Shown here piece by piece: positions 7,285-31,995 of a DNA stretch of 34,226 nucleotides (the stretch's first letter is position 1; each line of letters opens with the position of its first letter). The notes under the pieces were generated by a model. It did not search any database and was not told the DNA's origin. It was given only the letters and a program-made list of their open reading frames with translations. Origin of the DNA: Nanobdellota archaeon (GTDB taxonomy: Archaea; Nanobdellota; Nanobdellia; SCGC-AAA011-G17; ARS1403); assembly GCA_002688395.1 (NCBI GenBank), contig NZCU01000014.1:1-34226 (forward strand), in the 5' to 3' direction. The position numbers and the translations under genes were made by a program.

Positions 7285-7548
7285 ATGGGTGCTTTAACAG
7301 AGATATTGGAGTTGTTAATAGGTTTTATTGTTCTTCCTAGGATTGTTCTTTTTGGTTGGATACTATTTGCTGCTTATTTTAATTTAAGCAGTCTTCTAAT
7401 AACTCTTGTAGCCCAAATTTTGATTCTTTTTGTCCTTGCACGTCTTTTCTTTAATTTTAGAAGACTTATTGCTTATGGATTGATAATTGCAGGATTGGGG
7501 AGTGTAGTAGATTTTTTAATTAGTCTCCTTGGATTTAGTTTAGTTTAA
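7285..7548 (+). CDS. Small membrane protein (about 3 TM), unknown function
   Basis: 87-aa hydrophobic ORF. A TATA-like TTTTTATAT lies about 30 nt upstream, in a promoter region shared divergently with tRNA-Leu. Confidence 0.45.
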   Translation: MGALTEILELLIGFIVLPRIVLFGWILFAAYFNLSSLLITLVAQILILFVLARLFFNFRRLIAYGLIIAGLGSVVDFLISLLGFSLV

Positions 7549-7582
7549 TTATTTTCTTTTAGAGTATTAAAGTATATACTAG

Positions 7583-7640
7583 AAAATATATATTACATTC
7601 AAATGACATACTTGCCAAGGGTGCGTGAGGCTTATAAACA
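7583..7640 (+). promoter_or_regulatory. Conserved upstream cassette, copy A (box1 GACATACTTGCCA, box2 CGTGAGG, TATA CTTATAAA)
   Basis: Near-identical to 30579-30636, which lies upstream of TnpB. The core is shared with 16621-16664, 19529-19574, 13827-13875 (minus strand) and 33013-33037. Confidence 0.7.
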
Positions 7641-7664: not shown

Positions 7665-9041
7665 ATGGACCAAATTATGGAGATATCAAGGGGAGATTTT
7701 TGGAAATATGAGAAGCCTCTATTTATTTTAAAAAAGAGGATTTGGGGAGGTGGTTACTTTTACTTTCCTAGAAAACTTGCTAGAGAATTACGTTTGGATC
7801 GAGATTGTGTGCTGTTATTTAGGATAGCTTCTGCTAAATCTTTATTTTGCTTGAGTAAAATTTCTGAAGTAAGAAAAGATTATGTTTTAAAGATAAGTTC
7901 TGATATTCTTAAAAACTTGAGAATTAAAACATCTAGTTTGCTTAAATTAGAGTTCTTACAAATTAAGAAAAGAGGTGATAAACCAAAACTTCACATTATG
8001 AAGAATCATATTGATGTTATTAGGTATATTCCAGGAGGTAATGAATTTGTTTGTTTTAAAAGACCAGGGAATTGGGTTACTGTTTATTATCTAAAAGGAA
8101 GGAGTTCTTCTAATTTGACAATAAGAAGATTTGTTAAATTAAATCAGATATTTCTTTGGAATATTGGTTTTTATTTGGCAGAAGGTGAAAAAGCTACGAA
8201 TTATAGATTTGGATCATCTAATGCTGAAATAGATTTAATTAAATTGTTTAGAGATTGTGGAGAGAAATGTTTTGGTTTAAGTAGAAATGATTGGTATGCA
8301 GAACTGAGATTAAAGTATGGTAATGAAGTAGCTGTTAAACACTGGATTGATAATCTTGGTCTAAATAAAGATAAAGTTAATGTTAGAATTGTTAAAAATA
8401 AACCTCCTGAAACTGAATTTGGAAATTTATCTTTGGTTTTTTATAATAGGATTTTAGGGGAAATTAACAAAAATATTATTTATGATTTAAAATTTATAAG
8501 GAATTTGAGTAGAGTGGAGAAATTGTACATTCTTCGTGGACTTGAAGCTGGAGATGGTACCGTACTAAAAAATGGTTGCTTAGAAATGGGTATAACCTGT
8601 CAGAAAAAAGAAATGGAGATTGTGAAGTATTTACTTTCTTCTGTTTGTTCTAAAGATCCATTTATAAGAGAATATTGGACTTGTGATAAGGTTTGGTTTG
8701 TTTTCCATAGAGGTATTGAAATGGCTAAAGAATACATCTTAGATGGACATTTTTTGGAGCATACTAACAGACGGAAAAGACTATTAAATTTGTATAAATA
8801 TTATAAATTTAAGGAACTTTTTTGTTTATGTTTGTTATTGAATAGAAAAAATACTGTCTGGGATTTAACTAAAAATATGGACCTTACATATCCTGCAATA
8901 AATGTAAGATTGAAAAATTTAACAAAAGATGGTTTTATAATTAACAAGAAAGATAAACTCTTTAAAAATAATAGGTCCTATGATATTAGAAGGTTTTATT
9001 TAACTAATAAAGGAAAAGAGTATCTTAATCATTTTCTTTAA
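7665..9041 (+). CDS. LAGLIDADG homing-endonuclease-like protein with N-terminal AbrB/SpoVT-like segment and C-terminal wHTH
   Basis: Two LAGLIDADG-type motifs are present (NIGFYLAEGEK; YILRGLEAGDGTV). The N-terminal YFYFPRKLARELRLDRDCVLLF is AbrB-like. The C-terminal NVRLKNLTKDGFIINKK is wHTH-like. Confidence 0.75.
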   Translation: MDQIMEISRGDFWKYEKPLFILKKRIWGGGYFYFPRKLARELRLDRDCVLLFRIASAKSLFCLSKISEVRKDYVLKISSDILKNLRIKTSSLLKLEFLQIKKRGDKPKLHIMKNHIDVIRYIPGGNEFVCFKRPGNWVTVYYLKGRSSSNLTIRRFVKLNQIFLWNIGFYLAEGEKATNYRFGSSNAEIDLIKLFRDCGEKCFGLSRNDWYAELRLKYGNEVAVKHWIDNLGLNKDKVNVRIVKNKPPETEFGNLSLVFYNRILGEINKNIIYDLKFIRNLSRVEKLYILRGLEAGDGTVLKNGCLEMGITCQKKEMEIVKYLLSSVCSKDPFIREYWTCDKVWFVFHRGIEMAKEYILDGHFLEHTNRRKRLLNLYKYYKFKELFCLCLLLNRKNTVWDLTKNMDLTYPAINVRLKNLTKDGFIINKKDKLFKNNRSYDIRRFYLTNKGKEYLNHFL

Positions 9042-9042
9042 A

Positions 9043-9225
9043 TTATTTCTTTTTAGAAGTATTTCTCTTGTTCCATTTGTACTTTCTAAGTTTAGACGAT
9101 TTCCCATAACCGCATGAACTGCATCTTTTTTTTCTGATATGATAGGATCGCTCCCCACACCTATGGCATCGCAAATGAGTTTTCTTTCCTGATTTTTTAC
9201 CCATAGAGGGTGTTCCTTTGGTCAT
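9043..9225 (-). CDS. rpl37e: 50S ribosomal protein L37e
   Basis: [41 protein letters not shown] shows the L37e zinc-ribbon signature. It sits immediately downstream of the Sm gene, the conserved archaeal arrangement. Confidence 0.9.
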
Positions 9226-9226
9226 T

Positions 9227-9454
9227 TTATTCTGATGGAGATATTAGAATTATTGTGTCTCCTCTTATGAATAGGGTTCCAAGTTTTCGTACCATTTGTC
9301 CATCACTATGTTCTTCTGCGTCTTCTAGGACAGTATTTATATGTACGTCAAAAGCTTTTAGTTTTCCAATTATTTGTTTTCCGTTCTTAAGTTCTAAGAT
9401 TACTTTTTTGTCTCTTGCACTATTTAATGTGTCTAAAGGTCTTAATGCTTCCAT
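9227..9454 (-). CDS. Sm-like (LSm) archaeal protein
   Basis: Sm1/Sm2 motifs are present ([33 protein letters not shown] ... [13 protein letters not shown]). I prefer the start at MEALRPLD (9454); the N-terminal extension in the track ORF looks non-coding. Confidence 0.85.
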
Positions 9455-9529
9455 ATTTTTAGCCCCCTTGATATAGATTCTTAAAAAACAAAAGTATATA
9501 AATGTTTTTTTTATCATAATAAATATAAA

Positions 9530-9910
9530 ATGTCAATATCACAATATAGACCAAAAAGGAAAGTTACTGGTGGAATTTATATTAACTTTAGAAAGAAAAG
9601 AAAATTTGAGTTAGGTAGTGAAGCGAATAATACTAGAGTTGGTGGATTAAAGAAGAAAAGTATTAGAGTTTTAGGTGGAAATAGGAAAAGTTTTTTGTTA
9701 ACATCTGATATTGCTAATGTTTTTGATGGAAAAAAGTATAGTAAATCTAAAATAAAGGCAGTTTTAGAAAATAGTGCTAATAGACATTTTGTAAGAAGAA
9801 ATATTATTACAAAAGGGGCTATTATTGACACAGAATTGGGGAAAGCTAAGGTTGTTTCAAGGCCTGGGCAAGAAAGTGTCATAAATGCAGTATTATTAAA
9901 GAAAGAGTAA
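9530..9910 (+). CDS. rps8e: 30S ribosomal protein S8e
   Basis: The N-terminal SQYRPKRKVTGG and basic composition are typical of S8e. Confidence 0.85.
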   Translation: MSISQYRPKRKVTGGIYINFRKKRKFELGSEANNTRVGGLKKKSIRVLGGNRKSFLLTSDIANVFDGKKYSKSKIKAVLENSANRHFVRRNIITKGAIIDTELGKAKVVSRPGQESVINAVLLKKE

Positions 9911-10013
9911 TTCTATTTGCATACGAAGTCAAGGTTTAAAATATAAGCTTTTAGAAACCTTTATATACTAGTATATTCGAAGATTTATAAAGCTTATGTT
10001 GGGGGTAAGTCTT

Positions 10014-10928
10014 ATGGCAGCAAATGTTAAAAAATGTCCAGAGTGTAGTGGCATAAATCTAATTTTGAATAAGGATAGAGGAGAAATTATTTGTAAAGAC
10101 TGTGGACTAGTAGTTGAAGAGAAAATGGTCGATTTTGGTCAAGAATGGAGAGAATTTGACAGTGATCAAGCTGCTTCTAGAAGAAGAACTGGAGCTCCTA
10201 TGACTTATACTAAATATGATAGAGGTTTAGGTACTGATGTGGGTAGAAAATCAGATATTTACCAATTAGGTGGAAAAGATAGAAATAGATTTTTTAGATT
10301 AAGAAAATGGCAATATAGGATTAGTACTGCTATTGAGAGAAATTTAAAGTTAGCTTTAGCTGAGTTGAAGAGAGTTAGTAGTTATTTAAAATTAACAAAG
10401 GCTGTTGAAGAAGAAAGTGCTAGAATTTATACTTTAGCTGTTCAAAGAGGGTTAGTTAGGGGTAGATCAATGGAAAGTGTTGTTTCTGGTGCGCTTTACG
10501 CTGCATGTAGAAGACATGAAGTGCCTAGAACTTTAGATGAATTATCAGAGGCAAGTGGAATAGATAAGAAAGAAATTGGAAGAACTTATAGATTTGTTAC
10601 AAGAGAATTAGGAATTAGAATATTACCAAGTAATCCTGTTGATTATATTGCTAGATTTGCAACTTCTTTAAAATTAAGTGCTGATACACAAACTAAAGCT
10701 GTTGAAATTTTAGAAAAAGCACAGAATAGTGAATTGACAAGTGGTAGAGGTCCTACTGGGATTGCTGCTGCTAGTTTATATGTTGCTGCTTTGATTAATA
10801 ATGAGAAAAGAACTCAAAGAGAAGTAGCTGATGTTGCTGGTGTTACAGAAGTAACTATAAGAAATAGATATAAAGAGCTAATTAAAAAATTAAAGTTAGA
10901 CGATAAGGTTAAGAAAAAAAGAAGATAG
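10014..10928 (+). CDS. tfb: Transcription initiation factor B (TFB/TFIIB)
   Basis: N-terminal zinc ribbon CPECSG...CKDCG, a B-reader/linker, and two cyclin-like repeats (RGRSMESVVSGALYAACR; GRGPTGIAAASLYVAA). An upstream in-frame ATG at 9996 is an alternative start. TAG stop. Confidence 0.92.
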   Translation: MAANVKKCPECSGINLILNKDRGEIICKDCGLVVEEKMVDFGQEWREFDSDQAASRRRTGAPMTYTKYDRGLGTDVGRKSDIYQLGGKDRNRFFRLRKWQYRISTAIERNLKLALAELKRVSSYLKLTKAVEEESARIYTLAVQRGLVRGRSMESVVSGALYAACRRHEVPRTLDELSEASGIDKKEIGRTYRFVTRELGIRILPSNPVDYIARFATSLKLSADTQTKAVEILEKAQNSELTSGRGPTGIAAASLYVAALINNEKRTQREVADVAGVTEVTIRNRYKELIKKLKLDDKVKKKRR

Positions 10929-10929
10929 G

Positions 10930-11202
10930 ATGAGTATTTATCAATTAGAAAGAGATTTGGCTGAATTTATTTTACCTCCTAAAGTGGAAGATTTAGATTT
11001 TGAGGAAGTTGCATCTTATAGTGATGAGTTATTTGAAGCATTACAAAGAGGATGGATTGGTTTGAAGAAATTTTATGAGGATAAAAGAAATTTGTATGGA
11101 GATGAAACTATAATGAGATTAGATGGTTTTAGTAATGATGATTGGGGTTTGTATAAAATGCTTTTAACTCCAGAAATAACAGAAGATCTTATTTTACCTT
11201 AG
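10930..11202 (+). CDS. Small acidic hypothetical protein
   Basis: 90-aa ORF starting 1 nt after the tfb stop. I recognise no motif. TAG stop. Confidence 0.4.
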   Translation: MSIYQLERDLAEFILPPKVEDLDFEEVASYSDELFEALQRGWIGLKKFYEDKRNLYGDETIMRLDGFSNDDWGLYKMLLTPEITEDLILP

Positions 11203-12089
11203 ATTTTAATTTCCATTAAGTCTTTAGCTGCTTTTGTGTTTTTGAAAACTTTTTTTGCTTCGTTTTCTAATTCTTTCACATCTCTATATCTTTGAGAAAA
11301 ATGTGTTAATATTAATTGTTTAACTTTTGCTTTTTTTGCTATTTTAGCTGTTAATTCTGTTGTTAAGTGTTTTCTTTTTCTAACTAAATCCTTTAATTCT
11401 TTTTTCCATGTACATTCAGTTATTAGTAAATCTGAGTTTTTTGCAATAATTTCTGCGTTTTTACAAGGAGCAGTGTCCATGATAATTGTTACTTTTTTAC
11501 CCTTTCCTGGTATGGTTGCTTTTTTTGCTAAAATTTTATGTCCTTTGTAAGTTATATTTTTTCCTTGTTGTAACTTCCCTAAAATTGGATGTTGTTTTAA
11601 GTTAAATTTTTTTAAATAATCTAAATTTATTTTTATTTTATCATTTTCTATTAAAGAATAGGCTAAACATGGTACAATATGGTCTAAAGTAATAGCTTCT
11701 AAATTAAATGATTTTCCTTTGTAGAATATTCCTGAAGATATTTCTTTTACTTTGAATTTTATAGTTTTCTGTACTGCGATGCCGGAAAGCATGTTTTTTA
11801 GGTATTTTTTAGTGCCTTTTGGGCCGTAAATTTCTAATGTTTTCCTATAATCATTAGCTCTTAGATTTTGTAGTAAACCAGGAATGCCTAAAGTATGATC
11901 TCCATGCCAATGAGAAATTAATAATTTAGTTGTTTTACTTGGAGAAATGTTGGCTAATCTAAATTGTCTTTGAGTTCCTTCTCCACAATCTATTAAAATC
12001 CCTTCACCCTCATATTGTAAAAATATAGATGAATGGTTTCTAGTTTTCGTTGGAATCATCGAAGATGTTCCCAAAAATGTAATTTTCAT
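11199..12089 (-). CDS. rnz: Ribonuclease Z (tRNA 3' endonuclease), metallo-beta-lactamase fold
   Basis: HxHxDH motif in LISHWHGDHTLGIPGLL. Length and layout are typical of short-form RNase Z. Confidence 0.85.
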   Translation of the reverse strand: MKITFLGTSSMIPTKTRNHSSIFLQYEGEGILIDCGEGTQRQFRLANISPSKTTKLLISHWHGDHTLGIPGLLQNLRANDYRKTLEIYGPKGTKKYLKNMLSGIAVQKTIKFKVKEISSGIFYKGKSFNLEAITLDHIVPCLAYSLIENDKIKINLDYLKKFNLKQHPILGKLQQGKNITYKGHKILAKKATIPGKGKKVTIIMDTAPCKNAEIIAKNSDLLITECTWKKELKDLVRKRKHLTTELTAKIAKKAKVKQLILTHFSQRYRDVKELENEAKKVFKNTKAAKDLMEIKI

Positions 12090-12141
12090 AATATATATTA
12101 AATTGATAAGATTTTTAAATACTTTTGTTTAGTTATTGGAT

Positions 12142-12699
12142 ATGGTTAAAAAGAAAGAAGATATTATTGAACTTAAGAAGAAGATAGTTGGAGTGCTAGA
12201 AAAAGAGAGGGTTGTTGGAGATGTAAGTAATGAAAGTACTTTAATTTATGATAAAAGTAGATTTGGAGAGAGAGTTGGAGAGAAATTTCAGTATTCTTTA
12301 GTTGAAGGTTTGTTTTTATTAGATACTAAAAGAATGAATATTAAAGATGGAAGGGGTAAAAAGGTTAAATTTGATGATTTTTTAAAAAAAGCTAGGAGAT
12401 TTGATAAGAATTTTTGGGTTAAATACTGTGTTTTTAAAGATATGAGAAGTAGGGGTTATGTTGTTAAAACTGCTTTGAAGTTTGGAGCTGAATTTAGGGT
12501 TTATGGAAGGGGTATTAAACCTGGAGATGATCATGCTAAGTGGATTGTTTATCCTGTTCATGAATCTAATACAACTACTTGGTCTGAATTTGCTGCTAAA
12601 AATAGAGTAGCTCATAGTACTAGGAAAAGATTGCTCGTTGGTGTGGTTGATGATGAAGCAGAAGTATCTTATTGGGAGATATCTTGGATAAGGCCCTGA
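12142..12699 (+). CDS. endA: tRNA-splicing endonuclease (short, alpha-type subunit)
   Basis: The C-terminal catalytic domain is RGYVVKTALKFGAEFRVY...HAKWIVYPV. ATG at 12142, with TTG at 12136 as an alternative. Confidence 0.85.
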   Translation: MVKKKEDIIELKKKIVGVLEKERVVGDVSNESTLIYDKSRFGERVGEKFQYSLVEGLFLLDTKRMNIKDGRGKKVKFDDFLKKARRFDKNFWVKYCVFKDMRSRGYVVKTALKFGAEFRVYGRGIKPGDDHAKWIVYPVHESNTTTWSEFAAKNRVAHSTRKRLLVGVVDDEAEVSYWEISWIRP

Positions 12700-13802
12700 T
12701 TGACACTCCAGATAATTTTATTTTTGTATCCATTTTTTTGGATTATTCCTTCTTTTTCTAATTTGTTTAGATGTCTTATGGCTCCTCCATGTGTGAAAAG
12801 TAAACTATTAGCTATCTCTAACGTTTTTGAAGGTTTGTCCTTTAATATCTTTAAAATTTCTTTCTTTAATAAAATAGGATTTCTTGTTCTTTCTTTTCTA
12901 TTCCTAATTTTTATTTTGTACTCCATACTTAATTTTTTATGAGGACATTCAATAGGAATTGTATTGTGGAAATTTTCAAGACTTCTAGATGAAAGTGGTA
13001 GTGAGACTTTATCCTTTTTGTATCCATATTTGAAAATAACAATCTTATTAGTTTTAATATCTAAGTTTTCTAATAATTCTTTAACTTGTTTAATTAAATT
13101 TAAATTATGAATTGTTAGGTTTGGTTCTTTAGAAAAAGATCCGTCATCATCGAACAAAGCTCCAGTAAATGACGATTTACATTCTTTTGAGGATGAAAAT
13201 ATTAATTTTGGGATTCTATTTGGGTGCGTAATCTGAAAATCAAATAAATGTTGAATTATGTCTGAAATTGCTTTTGGAAATTCAATAATTGATGTGGTTT
13301 TCGTTTTTATTTCTCTAGTTCTAAAGTTGCCGAAAAGAGATAATTTTTCTATGAATTTTTCCCTTAGAGTTTTATCAGAATTCGCATAATATGGAGGATG
13401 ACTTTTTGCTTGACAGCCGTCTGCAATCATATGACCAATTATGGAATATAGCTTTGGAGTTTCTTTTAATGGCAGTTTTAGTTTTTTAATTTCCAAACCT
13501 GCTCTTACGCTAATTGCTAAAATATTCTTTTCTAGTTTGAACTTATTTTTGGAATCTATAATTTTTTTTAATAATTTTAATGGAATCGATTGAGAGTATT
13601 TAATCTTGTATTTTATACTAAATCCTCTTTCATAGTTTAGCAACGTTCTCAAATTAATATTTAGATATTTGGCAGTTTTTCTTTTGCTACCAAATTTTTC
13701 ATATAATTGATTAAATAATTTCTTTCTAAAGTTATCTTTTATCTTAACATATATTGTTTCTGGAAAATCTAAAATATCCCACTCCTTCAGTTTTCTTGAC
13801 AT
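12669..13802 (-). CDS. LAGLIDADG homing-endonuclease-like protein flanked by N- and C-terminal HTH/wHTH domains
   Basis: LAGLIDADG-type motifs are YSIIGHMIADGCQ and FTGALFDDDGSF. N-terminal HTH is KRKTAKYLNINLRTLLNYERG; C-terminal wHTH is GGAIRHLNKLEKEGIIQKNG. The 3' end overlaps the endA 3' end by 31 nt. Confidence 0.75.
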   Translation of the reverse strand: MSRKLKEWDILDFPETIYVKIKDNFRKKLFNQLYEKFGSKRKTAKYLNINLRTLLNYERGFSIKYKIKYSQSIPLKLLKKIIDSKNKFKLEKNILAISVRAGLEIKKLKLPLKETPKLYSIIGHMIADGCQAKSHPPYYANSDKTLREKFIEKLSLFGNFRTREIKTKTTSIIEFPKAISDIIQHLFDFQITHPNRIPKLIFSSSKECKSSFTGALFDDDGSFSKEPNLTIHNLNLIKQVKELLENLDIKTNKIVIFKYGYKKDKVSLPLSSRSLENFHNTIPIECPHKKLSMEYKIKIRNRKERTRNPILLKKEILKILKDKPSKTLEIANSLLFTHGGAIRHLNKLEKEGIIQKNGYKNKIIWSVNQGLIQDISQ

Positions 13803-13826
13803 TTAGTAATAATTAAGGATTTTTTC

Positions 13827-13875
13827 TTTATAAACTTCACGGGGGCATGACAAGTGTGTCAAGTATGTCAAGTGA
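13827..13875 (-). promoter_or_regulatory. Conserved upstream cassette, copy B (minus strand)
   Basis: The reverse complement reads CTTTCACTTGACATACTTGACACACTTGTCATGCCCCCGTGAAGTTTATAAA. It has the same box1/box2/TATA order as copies A, C, D and E, plus an internal TGACA...TGTCA inverted repeat. Confidence 0.65.
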
Positions 13876-13952
13876 AAGTAGCCTGGATTAGACCTTGATT
13901 TCTATATTCTAACATAATAATATTTTTAAAAAAAGTAGTATAATTTTAATAT

Positions 13953-14873
13953 ATGGTGGATGTTGATCGTAGAGATAAAATATTAGAGTTTGTAAGAAAA
14001 GAAGGAGCTGTTTTACCTATTAAGATTTCTAAAGAATTTAATATAGATACTATGTTTTCAGGCGCGATGTTATCAGAGCTTGTTAATAGTGGTAAAATTA
14101 AAGTTACTGAGCATTTAAAGGTTGGAGGAACTCCTGTTTATTATGTTGAAGGTATGGAAGCTAAATTAGAGGATTATACTAAATTTCTTAATGAGAAGGA
14201 TATTAGGACTATTGCTTTTTTGAAAGATAAAGGGATAGTTGAAGATAAAGGGTTAAGTCCTTTGCAGAGAGTTTCTTATAGGATTGTTAAAGATTTTGCT
14301 AAGAGTATTGTGTTAAAAAGAGATGATGGGAGTAAAGAGGTTTTTTGGAGATATTTTTTAGTTGATGAGGAAGCTGCTAAAGAAAAAATATTAGATTTGA
14401 TTAATAATAAAAAGGAAGATGTTAAGGTTAAAGTTGAGAAACAGGCATCTTTAGAAGAACCTGCTTTAGAAGAGGAAGTTCACGAAGAAAAAGAGCTTCC
14501 TGAGGAAAAACCTTTAGAGGAGCCTTTACAAAGAGAGGTCCCTGAGAGAATTGAGGTTAAGAAAAAACCTATTGGAGATGTTGTTAAAGAATTTTTTAGA
14601 GTTAATGGTATTACTGTTTGGGAAGAGAAGGTTATAAGGAAAGGAAAAGATGTTAATTACCTTGTAAGTTTTGATTCTAGAGTTGGGAAAGTTAGGTATT
14701 TTGCTAAATATAGAGATAAGAAAAGAATAAGTGAAGGAGATGTGAGTTTGGCTTATAATGAAGCTGGTAAATTGCCTTTATTGTTTCTAAGTAAAGGAGA
14801 GTTAACTAAACCTGCTAAGAGAATTATAGAAGAAGAATTTAAAGGTGTGATATTTAAGAGATTAAGTAGATGA
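13953..14873 (+). CDS. Hypothetical protein: N-terminal wHTH-like domain, acidic linker, basic C-terminal domain
   Basis: The N-terminal KILEFVRKEGAVLPIKISKEFNIDTMFSGAMLSELVNSGKIKV is wHTH-like. An E/P/K-rich linker follows. I could not assign a family. Confidence 0.45.
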   Translation: MVDVDRRDKILEFVRKEGAVLPIKISKEFNIDTMFSGAMLSELVNSGKIKVTEHLKVGGTPVYYVEGMEAKLEDYTKFLNEKDIRTIAFLKDKGIVEDKGLSPLQRVSYRIVKDFAKSIVLKRDDGSKEVFWRYFLVDEEAAKEKILDLINNKKEDVKVKVEKQASLEEPALEEEVHEEKELPEEKPLEEPLQREVPERIEVKKKPIGDVVKEFFRVNGITVWEEKVIRKGKDVNYLVSFDSRVGKVRYFAKYRDKKRISEGDVSLAYNEAGKLPLLFLSKGELTKPAKRIIEEEFKGVIFKRLSR

Positions 14874-15913
14874 TAAAAATAATTGATTGTGGAAGCCAAT
14901 TAACTCAGAATATTGCTAGGAGAGTTAGAGAGTTGGGTGTTTTTACAGAGATTGTTCCTTTTAATACATCTTATGAAAATGTTGTTGAGCAAGATACAGA
15001 TGGACTTATAATTTCTGGAGGTCAATTTAGTGTACATGATGATACTGCACCTATGTATACAAAAAAATTCTTAGAAGCTAGTATTCCCATACTTGGAATT
15101 TGTTATGGGCTTCAATCAATTTCTCATTTATTAGGTGGGAAAGTGATATCTACAAAAAATAGAGAATATGGAGAGACAAAGATTAAGATATTAAAGAAAA
15201 ATCTTCTATTTAAAGATATTAATTCTGAAGAATTTACTGTATGGATGAGTCATGGAGATATATTAGAAGAAGTTCCTTCTGGTTTTGAGGTTCTTGCAAA
15301 ATCATGGAATAATCATATAGCCTCAATACAAAGAGATAATATTTATGCTGTACAGTTTCATCCTGAAGTTGACCACACTGAACATGGAAGAAAGATACTT
15401 GATAATTTTTTAGAAATTTGTAAGTCAAAAAGGACTTGGGATCCTGAAAAAGAGTATAATTTTATTCTTAATAAAACTAGAGAAAAAATAGAAGGGAAAA
15501 TTGGTGTTGGTGGTATAAGTGGAGGTGTTGATTCAACAACAGTATCTGTTCTACTTGATAGAATAGCTGGAGAAAATTATCATCCAATTTTTATTGATAA
15601 TGGGTTATTAAGATTGAATGAGATAAATGAAGTAAAAAATAATCTTAGTTCTCTCGGCCTTAGAGTGCATTATGTTGATGCTAGTGAGAGATTTCTTTTA
15701 AAATTAAAGGGAGTTATTGATTCGGACGAAAAGAGGAAGATTATTGGTCATGAATTTATTAGAGTATTTGAGGAGGAAGCTAGGAAAATTCCAGGAGCTT
15801 CTTATTTAGTTCAAGGGACGCTTTATCCTGATGTTATTGAAAGTGTACCAATTTATAGTGCTTCTTCTATGATAAAAAGACATCATAATGTTGAGGATTG
15901 CCCAAAGATATGA
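14870..15913 (+). CDS. guaA: GMP synthase (glutamine-hydrolysing), part 1: GATase domain plus N-terminal part of the ATP pyrophosphatase domain
   Basis: GATase catalytic region PILGICYGLQ and HPEV; PP-loop SGGVDSTT. It ends ...HHNVEDCPKI where the family has HHNVGGLP, so the frame is lost at about 15893. Confidence 0.85.
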   Translation: MIKIIDCGSQLTQNIARRVRELGVFTEIVPFNTSYENVVEQDTDGLIISGGQFSVHDDTAPMYTKKFLEASIPILGICYGLQSISHLLGGKVISTKNREYGETKIKILKKNLLFKDINSEEFTVWMSHGDILEEVPSGFEVLAKSWNNHIASIQRDNIYAVQFHPEVDHTEHGRKILDNFLEICKSKRTWDPEKEYNFILNKTREKIEGKIGVGGISGGVDSTTVSVLLDRIAGENYHPIFIDNGLLRLNEINEVKNNLSSLGLRVHYVDASERFLLKLKGVIDSDEKRKIIGHEFIRVFEEEARKIPGASYLVQGTLYPDVIESVPIYSASSMIKRHHNVEDCPKI

Positions 15914-16389
15914 ATTTAGAAGTTGTTGAACCATTTAAGCATATGTTTAAGGATGAGGTGAGAAAGATAGCTGAAAATAAACTTAATATGTCTAGAGCTG
16001 TTGTTTGGAGACATCCCTTTCCTGGACCGGGATTGGCTATACGTATTAAGGGAGAAGTAGATAAAGAAAAATTAGAGATTGTGAGACAAGCTGATGCTAT
16101 TTTTCTTGATGAACTTAAAAGAAGAGGGTTATATTATGATATTAGCCAAGCATTTGTGGGATTAAATGATGTTCAATCAGTTGGAGTTATGGGAGATGAA
16201 GGTACTTATGAAGGAGAGATTAGATTGAGAGCAGTTGTTACAAAGGATTTTATGACTTCTGATATATATCATTTTAAATGGGAGGATTTACAAGCAATTT
16301 CTAATAGAATTGTAAATGAAGTTAGGGGTGTTAATCGTGTTTTTTATGATACAACTCAAAAACCTCCGGGAACGATAGAATGGGAATAG
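15898..16389 (+). CDS. guaA: GMP synthase, part 2: C-terminal/dimerisation region, in the -1 frame relative to part 1
   Basis: The frame reads (G)LPKDMNLEVVEPF...RHPFPGPGLAIRI...PPGTIEWE, the canonical GuaA C-terminus. It ends with tandem stops TAG TAA. Confidence 0.85.
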   Translation: MPKDMNLEVVEPFKHMFKDEVRKIAENKLNMSRAVVWRHPFPGPGLAIRIKGEVDKEKLEIVRQADAIFLDELKRRGLYYDISQAFVGLNDVQSVGVMGDEGTYEGEIRLRAVVTKDFMTSDIYHFKWEDLQAISNRIVNEVRGVNRVFYDTTQKPPGTIEWE

Positions 16390-16424
16390 TAAGGTTTAAA
16401 TATTGGGATTTTTGAAGATTAATT

Positions 16425-16619
16425 ATGGGAAGAATTAAAACTACTTTAGTTAAAAGAAGTGCAGAGAACTTCTTAGATAAACATCCAGATTTGTTTAAGA
16501 CTTCATTTAAAGAAAATAAAGTTAAATTAGCTGGAGTTGGAGAGATAAAATCTAAAAAATTAAGAAATAAGATTGCTGGATATTTAACTAGACTTACTAA
16601 ACAACAAGAAAAAGCTTAA
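16425..16619 (+). CDS. rps17e: 30S ribosomal protein S17e
   Basis: The N-terminus MGRIKTTLVKRSAENFLDKHPDLF is typical of S17e. Confidence 0.85.
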   Translation: MGRIKTTLVKRSAENFLDKHPDLFKTSFKENKVKLAGVGEIKSKKLRNKIAGYLTRLTKQQEKA

Positions 16620-16620
16620 T

Positions 16621-16664
16621 TTTTACCCGACATACTCGCCATACCCTCGTGAGACTTATAAATG
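16621..16664 (+). promoter_or_regulatory. Conserved upstream cassette, copy C
   Basis: TTTTACCCGACATACTCGCCATACCCTCGTGAGACTTATAAAT starts 1 nt after the rps17e stop codon. Confidence 0.7.
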
Positions 16665-16684
16665 AATAATTCTTTGTTTATTAT

Positions 16685-17380
16685 ATGTATTGTTTGACTG
16701 ATTCTCAAAAAGTAGATTTGGCTTATTTAATTGGGGCTGTTATTGGTGATGGATCTTATATGAACACTAAGAGTGGAAAAAGACGAAATATTAGATTTTC
16801 TTTCGGTTCTTCTGATAGGGAGTTTGTCGTTATTATAAAGGACATTATTAGAGACATTTTTTCCCTTGAATTAAACATATGTGTTGAAAGATTATCTCTA
16901 AAAAATAATGCATGGAGAGACCATTATAAAATAAGGAGTAGAATATTGCACAGACATCTTAAAAAATATCTTCCTGATAAGAATAAAATACCTAGTTTTG
17001 TCTATAATTCAAACCACTTTATTAAAAGTAGTTTTATTTCTGGATTTTTTGATGCTGAAGGAGGAATTTGTGTTAGTACTATAAAATCCAGAAATGTTTT
17101 AGATAGGAGATTGTATTGTCATAATTTCAATATTGATTTATTGAATGAAATTAAAGGATACTTATCTGAATTAGATATTGATTGTTTTATACAGAATAGT
17201 AAGAGAGCTTATGCTTTAAATATTTGGGGTTATAAAAATTTGGTTAATTTTAAAAATAAAATTGACTTTAGAATTTATAGAAAGAGATTTAAACTATTAG
17301 GTGCTATAAATAGTTATAAATTTGTTCACAAAAAATACAGACATTTGAAAGTTGATGTTCAAAACTTAGGAGGGATTTAA
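16685..17380 (+). CDS. LAGLIDADG homing endonuclease (compact two-motif form)
   Basis: Classic motifs are present: LAYLIGAVIGDGSY and FISGFFDAEGGI. Confidence 0.85.
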   Translation: MYCLTDSQKVDLAYLIGAVIGDGSYMNTKSGKRRNIRFSFGSSDREFVVIIKDIIRDIFSLELNICVERLSLKNNAWRDHYKIRSRILHRHLKKYLPDKNKIPSFVYNSNHFIKSSFISGFFDAEGGICVSTIKSRNVLDRRLYCHNFNIDLLNEIKGYLSELDIDCFIQNSKRAYALNIWGYKNLVNFKNKIDFRIYRKRFKLLGAINSYKFVHKKYRHLKVDVQNLGGI

Positions 17381-17381
17381 A

Positions 17382-17483
17382 ATGAGCGACGATATAGAAA
17401 AAGAGTCAGTAAAGATAACAGATACAAAAAATAGTGATAACCATACTGTGTTTGTAGGCCCCAAACCTTTTAACAGAATTTAG
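17382..17483 (+). other. Alba N-terminal fragment ORF ending at an in-frame TAG
   Basis: MSDDIEKESVKITDTKNSDNHTVFVGPKPFNRI then stop. HTVFVGPKP matches the Alba beta1 consensus (v-IGkKP). It is in the same frame as 17505-17750. Confidence 0.6.
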
Positions 17484-17504
17484 CGAAATGCTATTTCTGG
17501 AAGA

Positions 17505-17750
17505 GTGAATTATGTTACAGGGGTCGTGATGCAGTTTACAACACAAGGTGCTAATGAAGTTGTTGTTAAAGCTAGGGGTAGATTTATTTCTAGAGCTGTA
17601 GATATTGTTGAGGTTGCCACTAAGAGATTTTTAGAGGGACAAATAGAAATAGCTAAAGATGGAATTAATATTGGAAGTGAGGAATTTGAAAATAAAGAAG
17701 GAAAACAAGTTAGAGTGAGTTTTATAGAATTAAGTCTTATCAAACGATAA
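17505..17750 (+). CDS. albA: Alba (Sac10b-family) DNA/RNA-binding protein, main body
   Basis: NYVTGVVMQF...EVVVKARGRFISRAVDIVEVATKRF is the Alba core. GTG at 17505 is the only nearby start, and the canonical N-terminal strand is encoded upstream of an in-frame TAG. Confidence 0.8.
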   Translation: MNYVTGVVMQFTTQGANEVVVKARGRFISRAVDIVEVATKRFLEGQIEIAKDGINIGSEEFENKEGKQVRVSFIELSLIKR

Positions 17751-17823
17751 TTTTATTCCTTTTTCAATATTTAATAACTTTTAAATAGAATTTAATTCTA
17801 AACTATAGCTAAAAAGAGGTAAA

Positions 17824-19527
17824 ATGGTAAGTGGATTTGAAGCTTCGATACAGTCTAATTTATTTTTTAATATTGGATTAGTGCTAGTTGTTGCTACTAT
17901 TGTAGGTTATTTGGCTAGATTGATTAGACAACCATTGATTCCTGCTTATATTTTAGCTGGTATTTTAATTGGTCCTTTTGGTTTAGGATTGATAAAAGAA
18001 AGTGAAATTATAATTGCTTTAAGTGAAATTGGTATTGCGTTTCTGTTATTTATTGTTGGCTTGGAGATAGATTTAAAGAAATTAAAGGAAGTTGGATTAG
18101 TTAGTACTCTTGGAGGAACTATACAAGTAGCTTCTGTATTTTTTATTGGTTTTTTGGCAGCAATGGCTTTTGGATTTGTGAGGGTTGAGGCTATTTACTT
18201 AGGGTTTGTTCTAGCTTTTTCTAGTACCATGATTGTGATTAAGTTGTTGAGTGATAAGAGTGAGATGAACACTTTACATGGGAAAATTATTTTGGGGATA
18301 TTGTTGATGCAAGACATTATTGTTATTTTTGTTTTAATTTTATTGCAATCCTTGGGTAGCTTAAATTTATCTTTGTTATTGTGGGCGTTTTTGAAAGGCG
18401 CGATATTATTAGCTTTTGCAGTTCTTTTGAGTCAGTTTGTGTTACCTTTTATATTTAGATTTAGTGCTAGAACCCAAGAGTTGTTGTTTTTAAGTTCAAT
18501 TTCTGTTTGTTTTGTATTTTCTTTAGTAGCTTTTAGTTTTGGCTTTTCAATTGTTATAGGAGCTTTTTTAGCAGGGTTGGCTTTAGCTTCTTTACCTTAT
18601 CACTTTGATATAGCTGGAAAGATTATTCCTTTAAGAGATTTTTTCGCTACTTTATTTTTTGTTAGTTTAGGAATGGAGTTAGTGTTTGATTCTTTTAATG
18701 GATTGTTAGGGCCTTTGATTGTATTTTTGGGAATTATAATTTTGTTAAAGCCTTTGATTTTTATGATAATTACAAGTGTGTTTGGGTATAAGAAAAGAAC
18801 CGCGTTTTTTACTTCAATTTCATTAGCTCAAATAAGTGAGTTTTCTTTAGTTTTAGTTGCTTTAGGTTTGAACTTAGGACATGTTTCTAATCAAATTTTT
18901 ACTTTAACTGTGTTGTTGGCTATTATAACAATTGCTTTGACGTCTTATTTCATTAAATATGATAGAAATTTATATGGAATGTTCTCAAAAAAATTGAATG
19001 TTTTTGAAAGATTAGCTTTGAAAAATTCTGAGTTAGAACATTTACCTTATCATGAAAGAAAAGACATTATTATTTTTGGAGCTCATAGAATGGGAAGAAT
19101 ATTTATTGATACTTTAAATAAAGTTAAAAGTAATTTTGTTGTTGTTGATTTTGACCCTCAAATTATTAGAAATTTAATTAATAAAAAAATACCTTGTGTT
19201 TATGGTGATGTTGCAAATACTGAAGTTCTTAAAAGATTAAACTTGAATTCTGCTAAAATGGTTATAAGTACTATTCCTAATGATGAAGATAATATATTTT
19301 TAATTAAACATATTAAGAAAACGAATCCTGGTGCTATTCTTATAGTTACTTCTAGTCATGCAGGTAGTGCTTTGCATTTATATGATATTGGTGCTGATTA
19401 TGTTATTGTACCTCATTTATTGAGTGGAGAGATTGTTTCTCATAATTTGGTTGAATTAATTGAGAAGAAGAAAGATGTTGAGGAAATGAAAGTTAGGCAT
19501 ATTAAACATTTAAAGAGTAATAAATAA
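17824..19527 (+). CDS. Kef-type (CPA2) monovalent cation:proton antiporter with C-terminal RCK/TrkA-N domain
   Basis: About 12 TM segments typical of the Na+/H+ exchanger family, then a Rossmann-type IIIFGAHRMGRIF...VVVDFD. SD AAAGAGGT lies upstream. Confidence 0.8.
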   Translation: MVSGFEASIQSNLFFNIGLVLVVATIVGYLARLIRQPLIPAYILAGILIGPFGLGLIKESEIIIALSEIGIAFLLFIVGLEIDLKKLKEVGLVSTLGGTIQVASVFFIGFLAAMAFGFVRVEAIYLGFVLAFSSTMIVIKLLSDKSEMNTLHGKIILGILLMQDIIVIFVLILLQSLGSLNLSLLLWAFLKGAILLAFAVLLSQFVLPFIFRFSARTQELLFLSSISVCFVFSLVAFSFGFSIVIGAFLAGLALASLPYHFDIAGKIIPLRDFFATLFFVSLGMELVFDSFNGLLGPLIVFLGIIILLKPLIFMIITSVFGYKKRTAFFTSISLAQISEFSLVLVALGLNLGHVSNQIFTLTVLLAIITIALTSYFIKYDRNLYGMFSKKLNVFERLALKNSELEHLPYHERKDIIIFGAHRMGRIFIDTLNKVKSNFVVVDFDPQIIRNLINKKIPCVYGDVANTEVLKRLNLNSAKMVISTIPNDEDNIFLIKHIKKTNPGAILIVTSSHAGSALHLYDIGADYVIVPHLLSGEIVSHNLVELIEKKKDVEEMKVRHIKHLKSNK

Positions 19528-19528
19528 A

Positions 19529-19574
19529 TTTTACCCGACATAGTCGACATTGGTGCGTAAGGTATTTATAAAAG
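19529..19574 (+). promoter_or_regulatory. Conserved upstream cassette, copy D
   Basis: TTTTACCCGACATAGTCGACATTGGTGCGTAAGGTATTTATAAAA starts 1 nt after the antiporter stop codon. Confidence 0.65.
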
Positions 19575-19592
19575 AAAGACGTAATTTAGTGT

Positions 19593-20538
19593 ATGAAAAT
19601 TGATTTAATGAAGTATATTCCAAATAAAATCATTCCAAAACAAGGAAACTTGAAAGAATTCTCTATAAGTGAGCATAATAGTAATTTGTTGTTGTTTTAT
19701 AAAGGTTGTAGAAAGAAAATATTATTACCTAGGTTTGTTAATTTAAGTGAGGAGGATTTTGTTGCAATTGGTCTTTATCTAGCAGAAGGTCAAAAGTATG
19801 TTAATCTTGATAAGAAGTATCATCACTCTGGTGAGATAGATTTTTCTAATAGTGAGTTAATTTCTTTAGAACTGTTTTGTAAATTTATAAAAAAATTAAA
19901 TATATCTTCTAAGGAGTTTAGATGGGAAATTGTTTTAAATGTAAAAAGGAAATTTATAGATAAATCTTTGTTATTGAATTATTGGGTAGAAAATCTAAAC
20001 TTAGATTTTGAGAAAAGACGTCCTAAGAGTGTACGTTATAGCGGATCTTTATTTACAAATCCAAAAACTGTTAGTTAGTGATTATGGATGTATTCATTTG
20101 AAATATAGTTCTGTAATCTTTCGTAATTTTTTCTTGAATTTTGTATTTGAAATTTTTAATGATTTTTTGAAAATTAAGCATAAAAATATACTAGGATTAA
20201 TTCTGAAAGGTTATTTTGCAGGAGATGGAAATGTAACTTTTAATTTAAAGCCTAGAAGAAAGGCTGTTTATTTTTGCTCTAATGATATTAAATTATTTTC
20301 TATGCTAAAAGAAGCCCTTAAGACAATAGGAGTAAGCTCTATTAAAGAAACTTATCCTGAATATACTAGAACTCACACTAAGAGTTTAGTTTTTTATAAT
20401 TTTAAGGATTTTCAGTTGTTGGATGATTATGCTATTGCAGATACTGTTCCTTACAAAAGGAAGAAGTTTGAAAAACTTTTAAAGAGTTATAAATTATTGC
20501 CTCGAGCCGGATTTGAACCGGCGATCACTAGCTCATGA
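19593..20538 (+). pseudogene. LAGLIDADG homing-endonuclease-like gene disrupted by a 4-bp tandem duplication; paralog of 7665-9041
   Basis: Motifs are AIGLYLAEGQKY and LILKGYFAGDGNV. GTTAGTTAG at 20070-20078 contains GTTA twice; deleting one copy joins the two track ORFs into ...NPKTVSDYGCIHLKY.... The 3' end reads 41 nt into tRNA-Met. Confidence 0.75.
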
Positions 20539-20571
20539 AACTAGGGTTCTGCCAGACTAAACTATCGAGGC
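20498..20571 (-). tRNA. tRNA with CAU anticodon (elongator Met, or Ile2 if C34 is modified)
   Basis: The minus strand gives a full cloverleaf: acceptor GCCTCGA/TCGAGGC, D-stem GTTT/GAAC, anticodon stem CTAGT/GCTAG, loop TTCATGA, T-arm GCCGG-TTCAAAT-CCGGC, discriminator A. It lacks initiator features (no A1:U72, no GGG/CCC in the anticodon stem). Confidence 0.9.
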
Positions 20572-26690: not shown

Positions 26691-26761
26691 TGGACTGACT
26701 GGGAATCGAACCCAGGACCCAAGACTGCCAGCCTCGGATTTTACCACTAGACTATCAGCCC
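26691..26761 (-). tRNA. tRNA-Ala(GGC)
   Basis: Minus strand: acceptor GGGCTGA/TCAGTCC with the Ala identity pair G3-U70, anticodon loop CTGGCAG (GGC), T-arm CTGGG-TTCGATT-CCCAG, discriminator A. The D-stem is weak and the variable loop is 4 nt. Confidence 0.8.
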
Positions 26762-30010: not shown

Positions 30011-30454
30011 TTAGAAATCTTTTGTTTCTTCGCCTATTGCTGTTTTTACATCTATTTCACTTCTATGTACTTGGGCAAATGATGGAGTTGCTACAATCCA
30101 ATCTTCTCCAAATCCTGCTATATCTCCTTCTATGGCATCGCATGTTTTTTTCAATTTGTTTACTGCTCTTTTTAATTCTACTATATCTTTGTCTTTTAAT
30201 GGCTTAATATTAACTAAAGCTATTGTGTATCCTTCTCTTAAACCATCTAAAGCAGGTTTTATATCTTGAAATTCGTTGATAATAAAAGGTTTTACAATTA
30301 TTTTTGCTTTTGATTCTGATGTGTCACTTGGGTTTATTTCCAGGTATTGGTCTTCTTCTGGAAGTTCTTCTAATTCATCATCTAGAGGTCCCATTATCTT
30401 TTCTTTAATTCTTGAAAAAGTATCTTTCATTTTTTTACAATTCTCCGATAACAA
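30011..30454 (-). CDS. sepF: Cell division protein SepF homolog
   Basis: Acidic N-terminus, then a SepF/DUF552-like core: IIVKPFIINEFQDIKPALDGLREGYTIALVNIKPL...AIEGDIAGFGEDWIVATP. Confidence 0.6.
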   Translation of the reverse strand: MLSENCKKMKDTFSRIKEKIMGPLDDELEELPEEDQYLEINPSDTSESKAKIIVKPFIINEFQDIKPALDGLREGYTIALVNIKPLKDKDIVELKRAVNKLKKTCDAIEGDIAGFGEDWIVATPSFAQVHRSEIDVKTAIGEETKDF

Positions 30455-30578: not shown

Positions 30579-30636
30579 AAAATATATATTGCATTCAAAC
30601 GACATACTCGCCATACCCTCGTGAGCTTTATATATG
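30579..30636 (+). promoter_or_regulatory. Conserved upstream cassette, copy E (upstream of TnpB)
   Basis: AAAATATATATTGCATTCAAACGACATACTCGCCATACCCTCGTGAGCTTTATATAT is collinear with copy A over about 58 nt. Its core is identical to copy C. Confidence 0.7.
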
Positions 30637-30655
30637 AATACATCTTATTATTTAT

Positions 30656-31707
30656 ATGGAAAAGACAATAATAGCATCTGTAATAAACTTAACAAAAAAT
30701 AAAAAAACATTGTTAGATAATGATTATAACAATTATCAATGGTGGATGTTATTTAGTATAGATAAAGGTTTATTAAGTGCATTTAAAGCAGCAAAAGGTT
30801 ACAAACAAAAAATAATCAAATATAAGGAATACCCTTTACCATTACAATCAAGATTTATTAAAGAATGGTTTAGGATTAGAGATACTAAGATAACTAAACA
30901 TTGGATTAAGATACCTAATAGTAAAAGAAAAGGTGTTGGTTTATGGCTTCCATTAAGATTCCACCAACAACTACCGGAATATTATACATTAAAAGATTCT
31001 TATTTAGTAAAAAAGAATAAAAGTACTATATTCATTTTTGTGTTAATATAAGAGAACCTAAATTGTACAAATCAAGAACCATAATAGGAATAGATTTGGG
31101 ATTAAAAAACCCAGTTACGTTAACAAATATGAAAACAAATAAAACATTATATTTAGGTAAGGAATTAAAACAAATAAGAGGAAAATATTTCTACTTAAGA
31201 AAAAAATTAGGAAAAGAAAAAAAGTTGAAACAAATAATAAAAATTAAGAACAAAGAAAAGAGAAAGATTAACACATTATTACACACAGTTTCAAAGGAAA
31301 TAATAATAAATGCTTATCAAAATAAATCAACAATAGTTATTGGGAAATTAAAGAATTTCAAGAAAAATAAAGGAAGAAAGTTTAATAGAAAAATATCATC
31401 ATTCTCTTATTATAAACTTACACAATATCTAGAATACAAAGCAAGAGAAAAAGGAATTCCATTCATTAAAGTTTCAGAGTTTAATACATCTAAAACTTGT
31501 AGTGTCTGTGGCACTATAGGGAAAAGAGATAAAAATTGGTTTAAATGTACTTGTGGATATGAAGATAATGCGGATAGAAATGCAAGTATAAATATTGCAA
31601 AACGAGGTTTAAGTCAAGAACTTAAATTAGGGGTAGTTGCTTCTACCCAGAAATCTCTCAATGAAGAGATAAGCACTAAAAGTGTGCAATCTTGTGTGAT
31701 TGCTTAA
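30656..31707 (+). mobile_element. tnpB: IS200/IS605-family TnpB (OrfB, RuvC-like nuclease), frameshifted; no TnpA present
   Basis: RuvC-I IIGIDLGLKN, zinc ribbon CSVCG...CTCG, RuvC-III NADRNASINIAKRG. The two track ORFs join if one A is restored in AATAAAAG (31016-31023), giving ...VKKNKKYYIHFCVNIRE.... Confidence 0.8.
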
Positions 31708-31740: not shown

Positions 31741-31995
31741 TTACTGTATACTCTCTAATAAACTTACTATACTCCAAATTTGAGTCCTTACATGTTCAGG
31801 CATATTTGTTTCTTCTGAAATTTCTTCTAATTCTTGTAAAGCTTTATTTGTTTTAAATTCTGTAGTAGAGCTAGCTTCTGTTATTATAGAAATAATGTTG
31901 TCTATTTTTGATTTTATGTTTTTTGGCACACCATCATCATTAATTATCTTTTCGAATTCAGGGATAACCTCTTTACTAATTCTTTGTTCAGACAT
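31741..31995 (-). CDS. UPF0147-family small helical protein
   Basis: DDGVPKNIKSKI...EISEETNMPEHVRTQIWSIVSLLE resembles the conserved archaeal UPF0147 pattern (vPrNIR ... NmP.h.Rt.iW). Confidence 0.5.
   Translation of the reverse strand: MSEQRISKEVIPEFEKIINDDGVPKNIKSKIDNIISIITEASSTTEFKTNKALQELEEISEETNMPEHVRTQIWSIVSLLESIQ

Follow-up and report, generated by a model that had tools for sequence, protein, structure and literature searches.

Five free-standing LAGLIDADG genes at the ends of conserved genes in a DPANN archaeal chromosome: probable homing endonucleases and a candidate mini-intron in Alba

Five LAGLIDADG-type open reading frames (ORFs) lie among the core housekeeping genes of a 34,226-nt stretch of DNA (contig C14, here called the window) from a Nanobdellota archaeon, raising the question of whether they are mobile homing endonucleases or proteins recruited for a cellular function. 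The host belongs to the Woesearchaeota type of DPANN archaea, and its genome (G000) is assembled as 631 kb in 46 contigs, with 73% completeness and 29% G+C. The first-pass annotation had placed all five ORFs outside introns and inteins, put their share of the window at about 15%, and proposed either active homing at intergenic targets or domestication as regulators. The five ORFs, which we number HEG1 to HEG5 in coordinate order, are indeed present, none is located in an intron or intein, and together they cover 4,966 of the 34,226 nt (14.5%). Approximately 13 such LAGLIDADG ORFs occur in the entire 631 kb, in frames of 177-477 amino acids and never in an intein. Hence, only 0.7 would be expected per window; the density here is about seven times the genome average, and the post hoc probability of encountering five or more is about 8e-4.

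The Pfam LAGLIDADG_3 profile matches four of the five products above its cut-off: HEG2 (2.5e-9), HEG3 (9.4e-9, with LAGLIDADG_1 and LAGLIDADG_2 also matching), the part of HEG4 encoded at 20008-20538 (2.2e-5) and HEG5 (2.6e-13). HEG1 has no LAGLIDADG match in Pfam, and its placement in the family is supported instead by homology and predicted fold. It is homologous to the HEG4 family (31% identity over 177 residues, E 1e-7), and its AlphaFold model (pLDDT 74, pTM 0.71) recovers I-DmoI as the top hit in a Foldseek search of the PDB (probability 1.0, E 4e-4), followed by PI-SceI, the Tli VMA intein endonuclease, PI-PfuI, I-OnuI and WhiA. A sequence search of the PDB with the HEG1 family matched just the C-terminal ArsR/HlyU-like winged helix-turn-helix (wHTH) domain, the LAGLIDADG core being recognizable by fold comparison. 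The two motifs of HEG1, GFYLAEGEK (residues 168-176) and RGLEAGDGT (291-299), supply the acidic residues E173 and D297 and show no variation across three homologues with 40% identity. The corresponding motifs end in ADG and DDDG in HEG2, GDG and AEG in HEG3 (D22 and E125), AEG and GDG in HEG4, and GDG and TDG in HEG5. Thus, the terminal acidic residue of both motifs is kept in all five, and in HEG2 the acidic motif residues are conserved across ten family members. On these sequence and fold comparisons, all five are double-motif members of the LAGLIDADG superfamily, for which DNA cleavage, site-specific and double-stranded at a target of about 20 bp, is predicted.

In their predicted fold, two-motif monomeric organization and acidic residue at the end of each motif, these proteins resemble I-DmoI, PI-PfuI and PI-SceI; unlike those enzymes, which reside in rRNA introns or inteins, the genes of the window are free-standing and three of them carry helix-turn-helix (HTH) or wHTH domains. 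Archaeal homing endonucleases are known from rRNA introns and inteins. The extra DNA-binding modules suggested in the first-pass annotation are weakly to moderately supported as far as the HTH and wHTH domains are concerned, whereas the "AbrB-like" label given to the N-terminus of HEG1 finds no supporting profile. The add-ons of HEG1, HEG2 and HEG5 probably serve to lengthen the DNA target. The LAGLIDADG ORFs of the window, and of the genome as a whole, are barely alignable to one another; therefore, we reject a recent burst of a single element as their origin.

To place these genes in the context of their relatives, the flanking housekeeping proteins were concatenated as one query against 14 relatives, from which 11 loci were retrieved and mapped; the flanks of HEG5 were treated in a second concatenated search (12 family and order relatives) supplemented by further loci. 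For homologues, the five HEG proteins were concatenated and compared to 240 genomes of the order, scoring two candidates per genome. The block rpl37e-LSm-rps8e-TFB-RNaseZ-endA-o13953-rps17e-Alba-Kef is syntenic in the 14 relatives, which extend across the family and beyond. Pfam confirms L37e, LSm, S8e, TFB, an RNase Z-type metallo-beta-lactamase and the tRNA-splicing endonuclease EndA among the neighbours, along with S17e, Alba, a Kef-type Na/H exchanger with a TrkA-N domain and L37ae. HEG homologues were found in at least 57 of the 240 genomes. Within the conserved block, the HEGs are distributed sporadically: all five sites are polymorphic for presence or absence among the relatives, even within the genus, where G001 lacks HEG2, HEG3, HEG4 and HEG5 and carries other endonuclease genes in neighbouring slots. 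The alternative picture of fixed, syntenic copies with lost catalytic residues is thus the reverse of what is seen. The sites themselves are not intergenic, as had been thought, but the ends of conserved genes (rpl37e, endA and tRNA 3' ends) or, in the case of HEG3, a slot linked to an insertion in Alba. Two further genes in G001 belong to this picture: a NUMOD3+HNH gene between Alba and Kef (L001:4699-5802) and a 352-amino-acid LAGLIDADG-like gene between glyS and tRNA-Ala (L042:6263-7321).

The insertion boundaries are clearest at endA. HEG2 (12669-13802, minus strand, 377 amino acids) combines an N-terminal HTH domain, the LAGLIDADG_3 core and a C-terminal ArsR-type wHTH domain; it is convergent with endA and overlaps its 3' end by 31 nt, the value noted in the first-pass annotation. 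The functional last five codons of endA (TGGATAAGGCCCTGA, 12685-12699, plus strand) lie on the HEG2 side and, by comparison with G001, differ from the native end at three synonymous positions. Beyond the far end of the unit, which carries a promoter-like cassette (13826-13869, minus strand), sits an orphan remnant of the endA 3' end (TGGATTAGACCTTGA, 13884-13898, plus strand), which matches the native end of the G001 gene at 15 of 15 positions and continues with TTTCTATATT..., the downstream spacer as found in G001. As this second copy corresponds to the native end together with its spacer, the HEG2 unit has been inserted within the last five codons of endA. Comparable endA remnants are seen in G158, G181 and G231. 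None of the 11 mapped relatives has HEG2, among them every one of the nine other genomes in the family of G000. In nine other genomes of the order, drawn from several families, genes for HEG2-type proteins (36-41% identity) occupy the gap between endA and o13953 and overlap the 3' end of endA. Its farther cousins (28-31% identity) occupy other sites.

A parallel arrangement is seen at rpl37e. HEG1 (7665-9041, plus strand, 458 amino acids) has a beta-rich N-terminal domain followed by the LAGLIDADG core and the ArsR/HlyU-like wHTH domain, is convergent with rpl37e, and is separated from the rpl37e stop by the single nucleotide reported earlier. The functional 3' end of rpl37e, joined to the body of the gene, lies beside the HEG1 stop (9043-9063, minus strand), and a 20-nt near-duplicate of it (TTATTTTCTTTTAGAGTATT, 7549-7568, minus strand) remains as an orphan on the other side of the unit. 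This remnant abuts the stop of a membrane-protein gene (7285-7548), and the same junction is found at the empty site of G005 (L003:441-), where the membrane-protein gene adjoins rpl37e. Homologues of HEG1 (39-40% identity) are again convergent on rpl37e in G058 and G161. In G001, the slot directly after rpl37e is taken by an unrelated LAGLIDADG gene of 219 amino acids, preceded by a cassette as in the window; the 3' end of this gene (L001:11499-12158) overlaps the 5' end of tRNA-Leu. Both HEG1 and HEG2 recall the Allomyces atp6 type of mobile endonuclease ORF in fungal mitochondria, which reportedly replaces the C-terminus of its host gene: they interrupt the final codons of rpl37e and endA, carry a replacement end and leave the original as a remnant. 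Unlike that type, they are LAGLIDADG genes that face the host gene in antisense (convergent) orientation instead of continuing it in frame, with a duplicate of just 15-20 nt, and they reside in an archaeal chromosome.

HEG4 and HEG5 run into the 3' ends of tRNA genes, as the first-pass annotation had it; the overlaps measure 41 and 20 nt, respectively. HEG4 (19593-20538, plus strand), a member of the HEG1 superfamily, ends antisense within tRNA-Met(CAT) (20498-20571, minus strand), the 3' end of which is its landing point. It was correctly recognized as a LAGLIDADG gene but is not a single ORF: it consists of two frames, 19593-20078 and 20008-20538, with the frameshift most simply placed at the A5 run at 20063-20067. 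Its homologues in G102 and G007 are unbroken single ORFs of 301-324 amino acids. The insertion begins directly after the stop of the Kef-type transporter gene, 9 nt upstream of the HEG4 cassette (19537-19573, plus strand), and in G001 the site is empty, with the Kef stop 3 nt from the tRNA. Among the homologue contexts across the order, no HEG4 homologue was found at a Kef/tRNA-Met site; the relatives of HEG4 adjoin other tRNAs.

HEG5 (33061-33873, plus strand, 270 amino acids) comprises an N-terminal HTH_38 domain and two LAGLIDADG_3 stretches, and its 3' end is antisense to tRNA-Pro(UGG) (33854-33929, minus strand). In HEG-free relatives, this tRNA lies directly upstream of rpl37ae (window 32484-32690), as in G004, G005, G006 and G016. 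Divergent from HEG5 is a gene for a wHTH protein of 76 amino acids (32794-33024, minus strand). Of the 12 relatives from the family and order that were searched, G007 alone has this gene, beside the HEG5 homologue there. G000 and G007 both have the pair between tRNA-Pro and rpl37ae, and the small gene is probably part of the inserted unit of HEG5. The HEG5 family (44-61% identity) is found around rpl37ae and tRNA-Pro in six genomes (G007 and five others), with one copy split, and its cousins (33-38% identity) adjoin tRNA-Gly genes.

The slot 3' of tRNA-Pro (32691-33929 in the window, compared with L042:2009-2790 in G001) is a hotspot: in G001 it holds a toxin-antitoxin-like pair of ribbon-helix-helix and RelE-like genes of about 690 nt, and the contents of G000/G007 and of G001 share a single end point, ...AAAATTAAAAACATAA|ACCTTTTAAACCC. 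In G007 (L014:2305-2420, beside the HEG5 homologue) and in G005 (L053:817-893, with no endonuclease gene), the T-arm of tRNA-Pro is enlarged by an insertion of about 30 nt; such insertions, close to the presumed target, are possibly tRNA introns of a non-canonical kind. The tRNA genes at the slots are strikingly divergent between G000 and G001, with identities of 61-70% (tRNA-Met at 20498-20571, 52/74; tRNA-Ala at 26691-26761, 46/75; tRNA-Pro, 51/76) as against 75-90% for the protein genes near them. This may reflect allele replacement together with the endonuclease genes; however, we set it aside as a sign of such replacement, as each tRNA adjoins an inserted element in G000, G001 or both and there is consequently no clean control tRNA.

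HEG3 (16685-17380, plus strand, 231 amino acids) is a minimal double-motif LAGLIDADG protein. A single nucleotide separates its gene from the Alba ATG (17382), as had been noted, and the alignment with G001 backs that start codon. Here the insertion begins directly after the rps17e stop, 9 nt upstream of the HEG3 cassette (16629-16663, plus strand). An orthologue occupies the same slot in G009 (55% identity), the slot gene of G015 (27% identity) belongs to a different family, and the site is empty in eight of the 11 mapped relatives (G001, G002, G003, G005, G007, G008, G010 and G016); G004 was not counted, rps17e not being beside Alba there. The Alba gene that follows (17382-17750) is itself interrupted. 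Comparison with relatives reveals a stop-containing hairpin insertion of 33 nt at 17472-17504 (plus strand), in the context ..KPF|(M/V)NYVTG.., where uninterrupted Alba genes have ATGAAT (Met-Asn) between ..KPF and YVTG... Insertions of 30-69 nt at this one fixed codon are present in 26 of 69 genomes surveyed and fall into two sequence classes, one of the form AACAGA...GTGAAT and the other beginning with ATGAA.... All of them fold as hairpins, and many are 31 or 32 nt long, a length that would disrupt the reading frame if it stayed in the mRNA. As many of the lengths are not multiples of three, either splicing removes the insertions from the transcript or the Alba genes concerned are dead. A canonical bulge-helix-bulge motif was not demonstrated in these Alba insertions.

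The interruption of Alba goes together with the presence of an endonuclease gene in the rps17e|Alba slot. Twelve genomes have a LAGLIDADG gene in this slot, and these genes belong to two unrelated families: the HEG3 type (224-231 amino acids; G000 and G009) and a family of HTH+LAGLIDADG proteins of 290-335 amino acids (G015, G025, G026, G036, G037, G053, G059, G070, G143 and G185). Alba is interrupted in all 11 slot-HEG genomes that have it on the contig versus 15 of 58 genomes without a slot gene (Fisher one-sided p = 4.2e-6, a statistic that ignores phylogeny, with carriers spanning at least eight families). The slot also shows some peculiar gene structures. In G037 (L084), G059 (L086) and G026 (L087), the slot ORF has no stop before Alba, continues in frame through the first 20-30 codons of Alba and terminates inside the Alba insertion, so that the encoded product would depend on whether the transcript is spliced. 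In G143, the slot contains an ORF (L091:1379-2479) of the group II intron reverse-transcriptase type, with a YVDDF motif, beside a truncated slot endonuclease.

A feature shared across these otherwise unrelated genes is a promoter-like cassette, GACATACTCGCCA-N7-CGTGAG-N2-4-TTATAAA, which lies about 25 nt upstream of HEG1-4 and of a TnpB gene in the window. That of HEG1 reads GACATACTTGCCA..GCGTGAG..TTATAAA and lies at 7605-7639 (plus strand). In each of HEG1-4 the cassette is part of the inserted unit; it starts no more than about 10 nt after the upstream stop codon, as at HEG3 and HEG4. At HEG5 it is at best degenerate. Twelve further copies exist in the genome, mostly before LAGLIDADG genes, and the remainder precede a second TnpB gene, a NUMOD3-type nuclease gene, a gene for a protein of 400 amino acids and small ORFs. 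Related GCGYGTGAG-TATA elements precede about one-third of the homologous genes in other families. We also observed a GCG(C)GTGAG-like element immediately 5' of the TATA box before endonuclease genes from several unrelated LAGLIDADG families, carried by other families of the order (L016, L020, L023, L085, L090, L025 and L009); thus, this is a promoter type found across the order and not specific to G000.

The anatomy of these units, their insertion boundaries, their fidelity to sites and their sporadic distribution lead us to infer, at a probability of roughly 70%, that five independent lineages of free-standing LAGLIDADG homing endonucleases have invaded a conserved block of information-processing genes; on this account the enzymes would cleave the targets considered here and may still be active. 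Of the two possibilities originally put forward, the mobile one is thus favoured by the polymorphism, the faithfulness to sites, the retained acidic residues and the existence of decayed copies (HEG4 itself and the homologues of HEG5 in G022 and of HEG4 in G208 are split, and G157 has a fragment), and the same points speak against the domestication arm. Each unit consists of a promoter cassette and the endonuclease ORF. In such intronless homing, the enzyme would make its cut in a HEG-free genome, within the conserved sequence with which a housekeeping or tRNA gene ends, and repair from the carrier allele would then copy the endonuclease gene in. HEG1 and HEG2 lie within the last five to seven or so codons of rpl37e and endA, bringing replacement codons and leaving the original ones orphaned, whereby the presumed target is also split; HEG4 and HEG5 lie flush with, and antisense-overlapping, the 3' ends of tRNA-Met and tRNA-Pro. 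The adherence of each HEG lineage to one site across families is the pattern expected if the landing place is set by the specificity of the protein itself.

Several points weigh against this interpretation. The nearest homologues are just 40-61% identical, and hence no recent transfer is documented. The nucleotide-identity profiles of G000 and G001 display no clear co-conversion tract beside the insertions, HEG4 is broken by its frameshift, and the association at Alba was computed without regard to phylogeny. A candidate case of horizontal transfer, G154 and G177, which carry different family labels and have HEG2 at 69% and endA at 77% identity, also had to be given up: the entire 3-kb region is 70-88% identical, and as the flanks are similar too, the contigs are simply related or one of them is a contaminant, and the pair provides no evidence for horizontal transfer.

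Some of these points would equally fit fossil insertions, acquired by ancestors at the level of the order, inherited vertically, lost lineage by lineage and slowly decaying without any further homing. The missing co-conversion tract and the broken HEG4 speak for such an account, the same-site homologues (36-61% identity) are about as diverged as poorly conserved neighbours such as o13953, and in the G231/G232 pair from a single genus the inheritance appears vertical, with HEG2 at 77% and endA at 94% identity. It is a real rival, yet we regard it as unlikely. Four of the five ORFs remain intact, and even between families at 36-40% identity the catalytic residues are conserved, which together point to selection on the nuclease. 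The endA remnant, being identical to the G001 end while the functional copy shows the three synonymous differences, fits an insertion after the split of G000 and G001 better than one as old as the order. Furthermore, under vertical inheritance HEG2 would have had to be lost precisely and independently many times, as not one of the nine other genomes in the family of G000 has it.

Considerably less probable is the idea that the LAGLIDADG enzymes are not self-mobilizing but are passengers of some common machinery, for example one related to TnpB/IS605, that inserts assorted nuclease genes at permissive gene ends. The cassette, with its start so near the upstream stop codon, precedes two TnpB genes, the NUMOD3-type nuclease gene and other genes in addition to the HEGs, and the slots of G001 hold an HNH gene or a toxin-antitoxin-like pair. 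However, each LAGLIDADG lineage is faithful to one target over distant families, as predicted for a protein-encoded specificity; the duplications are 15-20 nt of a gene end rather than a fixed short target duplication; and HEG5 and several homologues have no cassette. The units also lack a transposase and terminal inverted repeats, and IS605-type ends, considered on account of the cassette shared with TnpB, were rejected, there being no hairpin ends or TnpA around the units. Domestication as WhiA-like LAGLIDADG+HTH proteins regulating the adjacent housekeeping genes has in its favour the combination of core and HTH or wHTH domains in HEG1, HEG2 and HEG5, the presence of WhiA among the weaker structural matches of HEG1 and a common cassette suggestive of regulated expression, yet it is scarcely credible for genes that keep the catalytic acidic residue in every motif, are missing from the closest relatives with the neighbouring genes intact, exist also as decayed copies and, in the case of HEG1, form a family of just three clusters among 5.8 billion proteins.

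Returning to homing as the favoured interpretation, the slot of HEG3 suggests how such an enzyme might be tolerated upstream of an essential gene. We consider the Alba insertion a candidate mRNA mini-intron and a candidate immunity determinant for the slot endonuclease: lying about 90 nt downstream of HEG3, the 33-nt insertion would destroy a target at that codon. It is accordingly conceivable, though we hold it to be somewhat less than an even bet, that the HEG and the 30-69-nt Alba intron home as a pair, with the enzyme cutting the uninterrupted KPF|MNYVTG site and the intron rendering carriers immune. The closest known cases are collaborative homing by F-CphI, whose gene neighbours the psbA intron in cyanophage S-PM2 (PMC6083498), and trans homing by mobE with the defunct I-TevIII intron of T4 nrdB (PMC2790892); in both, the allele that has no intron is cut by a free-standing endonuclease at the point where the intron inserts. 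As with F-CphI and mobE, the slot HEG adjoins an interrupted gene whose putative intron has no endonuclease, the two co-occur (in 11 of 11 genomes here) and alleles with the insertion alone also exist. Unlike in those systems, the interruption is, at 30-69 nt, far below the size of a group I intron, and it is presumably a substrate of the archaeal splicing endonuclease of the bulge-helix-bulge type. This pairing of endonuclease and mini-intron is the most original element of the finding. If real, it would give phage collaborative homing its first counterpart in archaea and would provide a concrete route by which introns of the splicing-endonuclease type enter archaeal protein-coding genes and spread; the link between HEG and Alba insertion makes that entry, an old question, approachable by experiment.

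The closest parallels to the window as a whole are the seg and mob genes of T4-like phages, which are free-standing and move by "intronless homing," as does SegB in a tRNA cluster (PMC2330249; review PMC2988022). Common to both are nuclease genes with their own promoters wedged among essential genes and tRNA genes, presence or absence between close relatives, reuse of slots by different nuclease families, and a target presumed to lie in the adjacent conserved gene. The differences are that seg and mob are phage genes for GIY-YIG or HNH enzymes, whereas the window belongs to an archaeal cellular chromosome, encodes LAGLIDADG enzymes and has them at an extreme density (five within 34 kb, with some 13 across the 0.63 Mb). 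The literature we found describes free-standing endonucleases in phages and organelles and LAGLIDADG proteins in rRNA insertions of the CPR; in the literature searched, we found neither free-standing LAGLIDADG genes in DPANN chromosomes nor such dense colonization of archaeal gene ends. HEGs take up about 15% of the window, in a genome of just about 0.63 Mb as assembled (73% complete). The window illustrates three ways of sitting harmlessly on an essential gene, namely a replacement gene end, abutment to a tRNA 3' end and pairing with a candidate mini-intron, and the enzymes constitute a pool of predicted new long-target nucleases with add-on DNA-binding domains.

Other genes of the window also bear on its history. 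The guaA gene for GMP synthase (14870-16389) has a frameshift at about 15898-15913 that breaks the expected HHNVGGLP motif. It is missing at this slot from all relatives examined: the slot of G001 has nothing, those of G002, G003, G007, G009, G010 and G016 have a THUMP-methyltransferase-like gene of 345-360 amino acids instead, and a close guaA is found only in G006, at another location. The TnpB gene (30656-31707) is likewise frameshifted and is preceded by the cassette common to the HEGs; it belongs to an insertion within 30601-31707 that G001 does not have, as indicated by the fact that the G001 homologues of 30011-30454 and 31741-31995 adjoin each other. The frameshifts of HEG4, guaA and TnpB may be assembly errors or decay. 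Finally, TFB is uninterrupted in the window, and no LAGLIDADG match anywhere in G000 is borne by an intein; in four other genomes (G004:C38, G005:C112, G008:C41 and G022:C7), TFB is split in frame by an intein of about 1.5 kb with a LAGLIDADG core.

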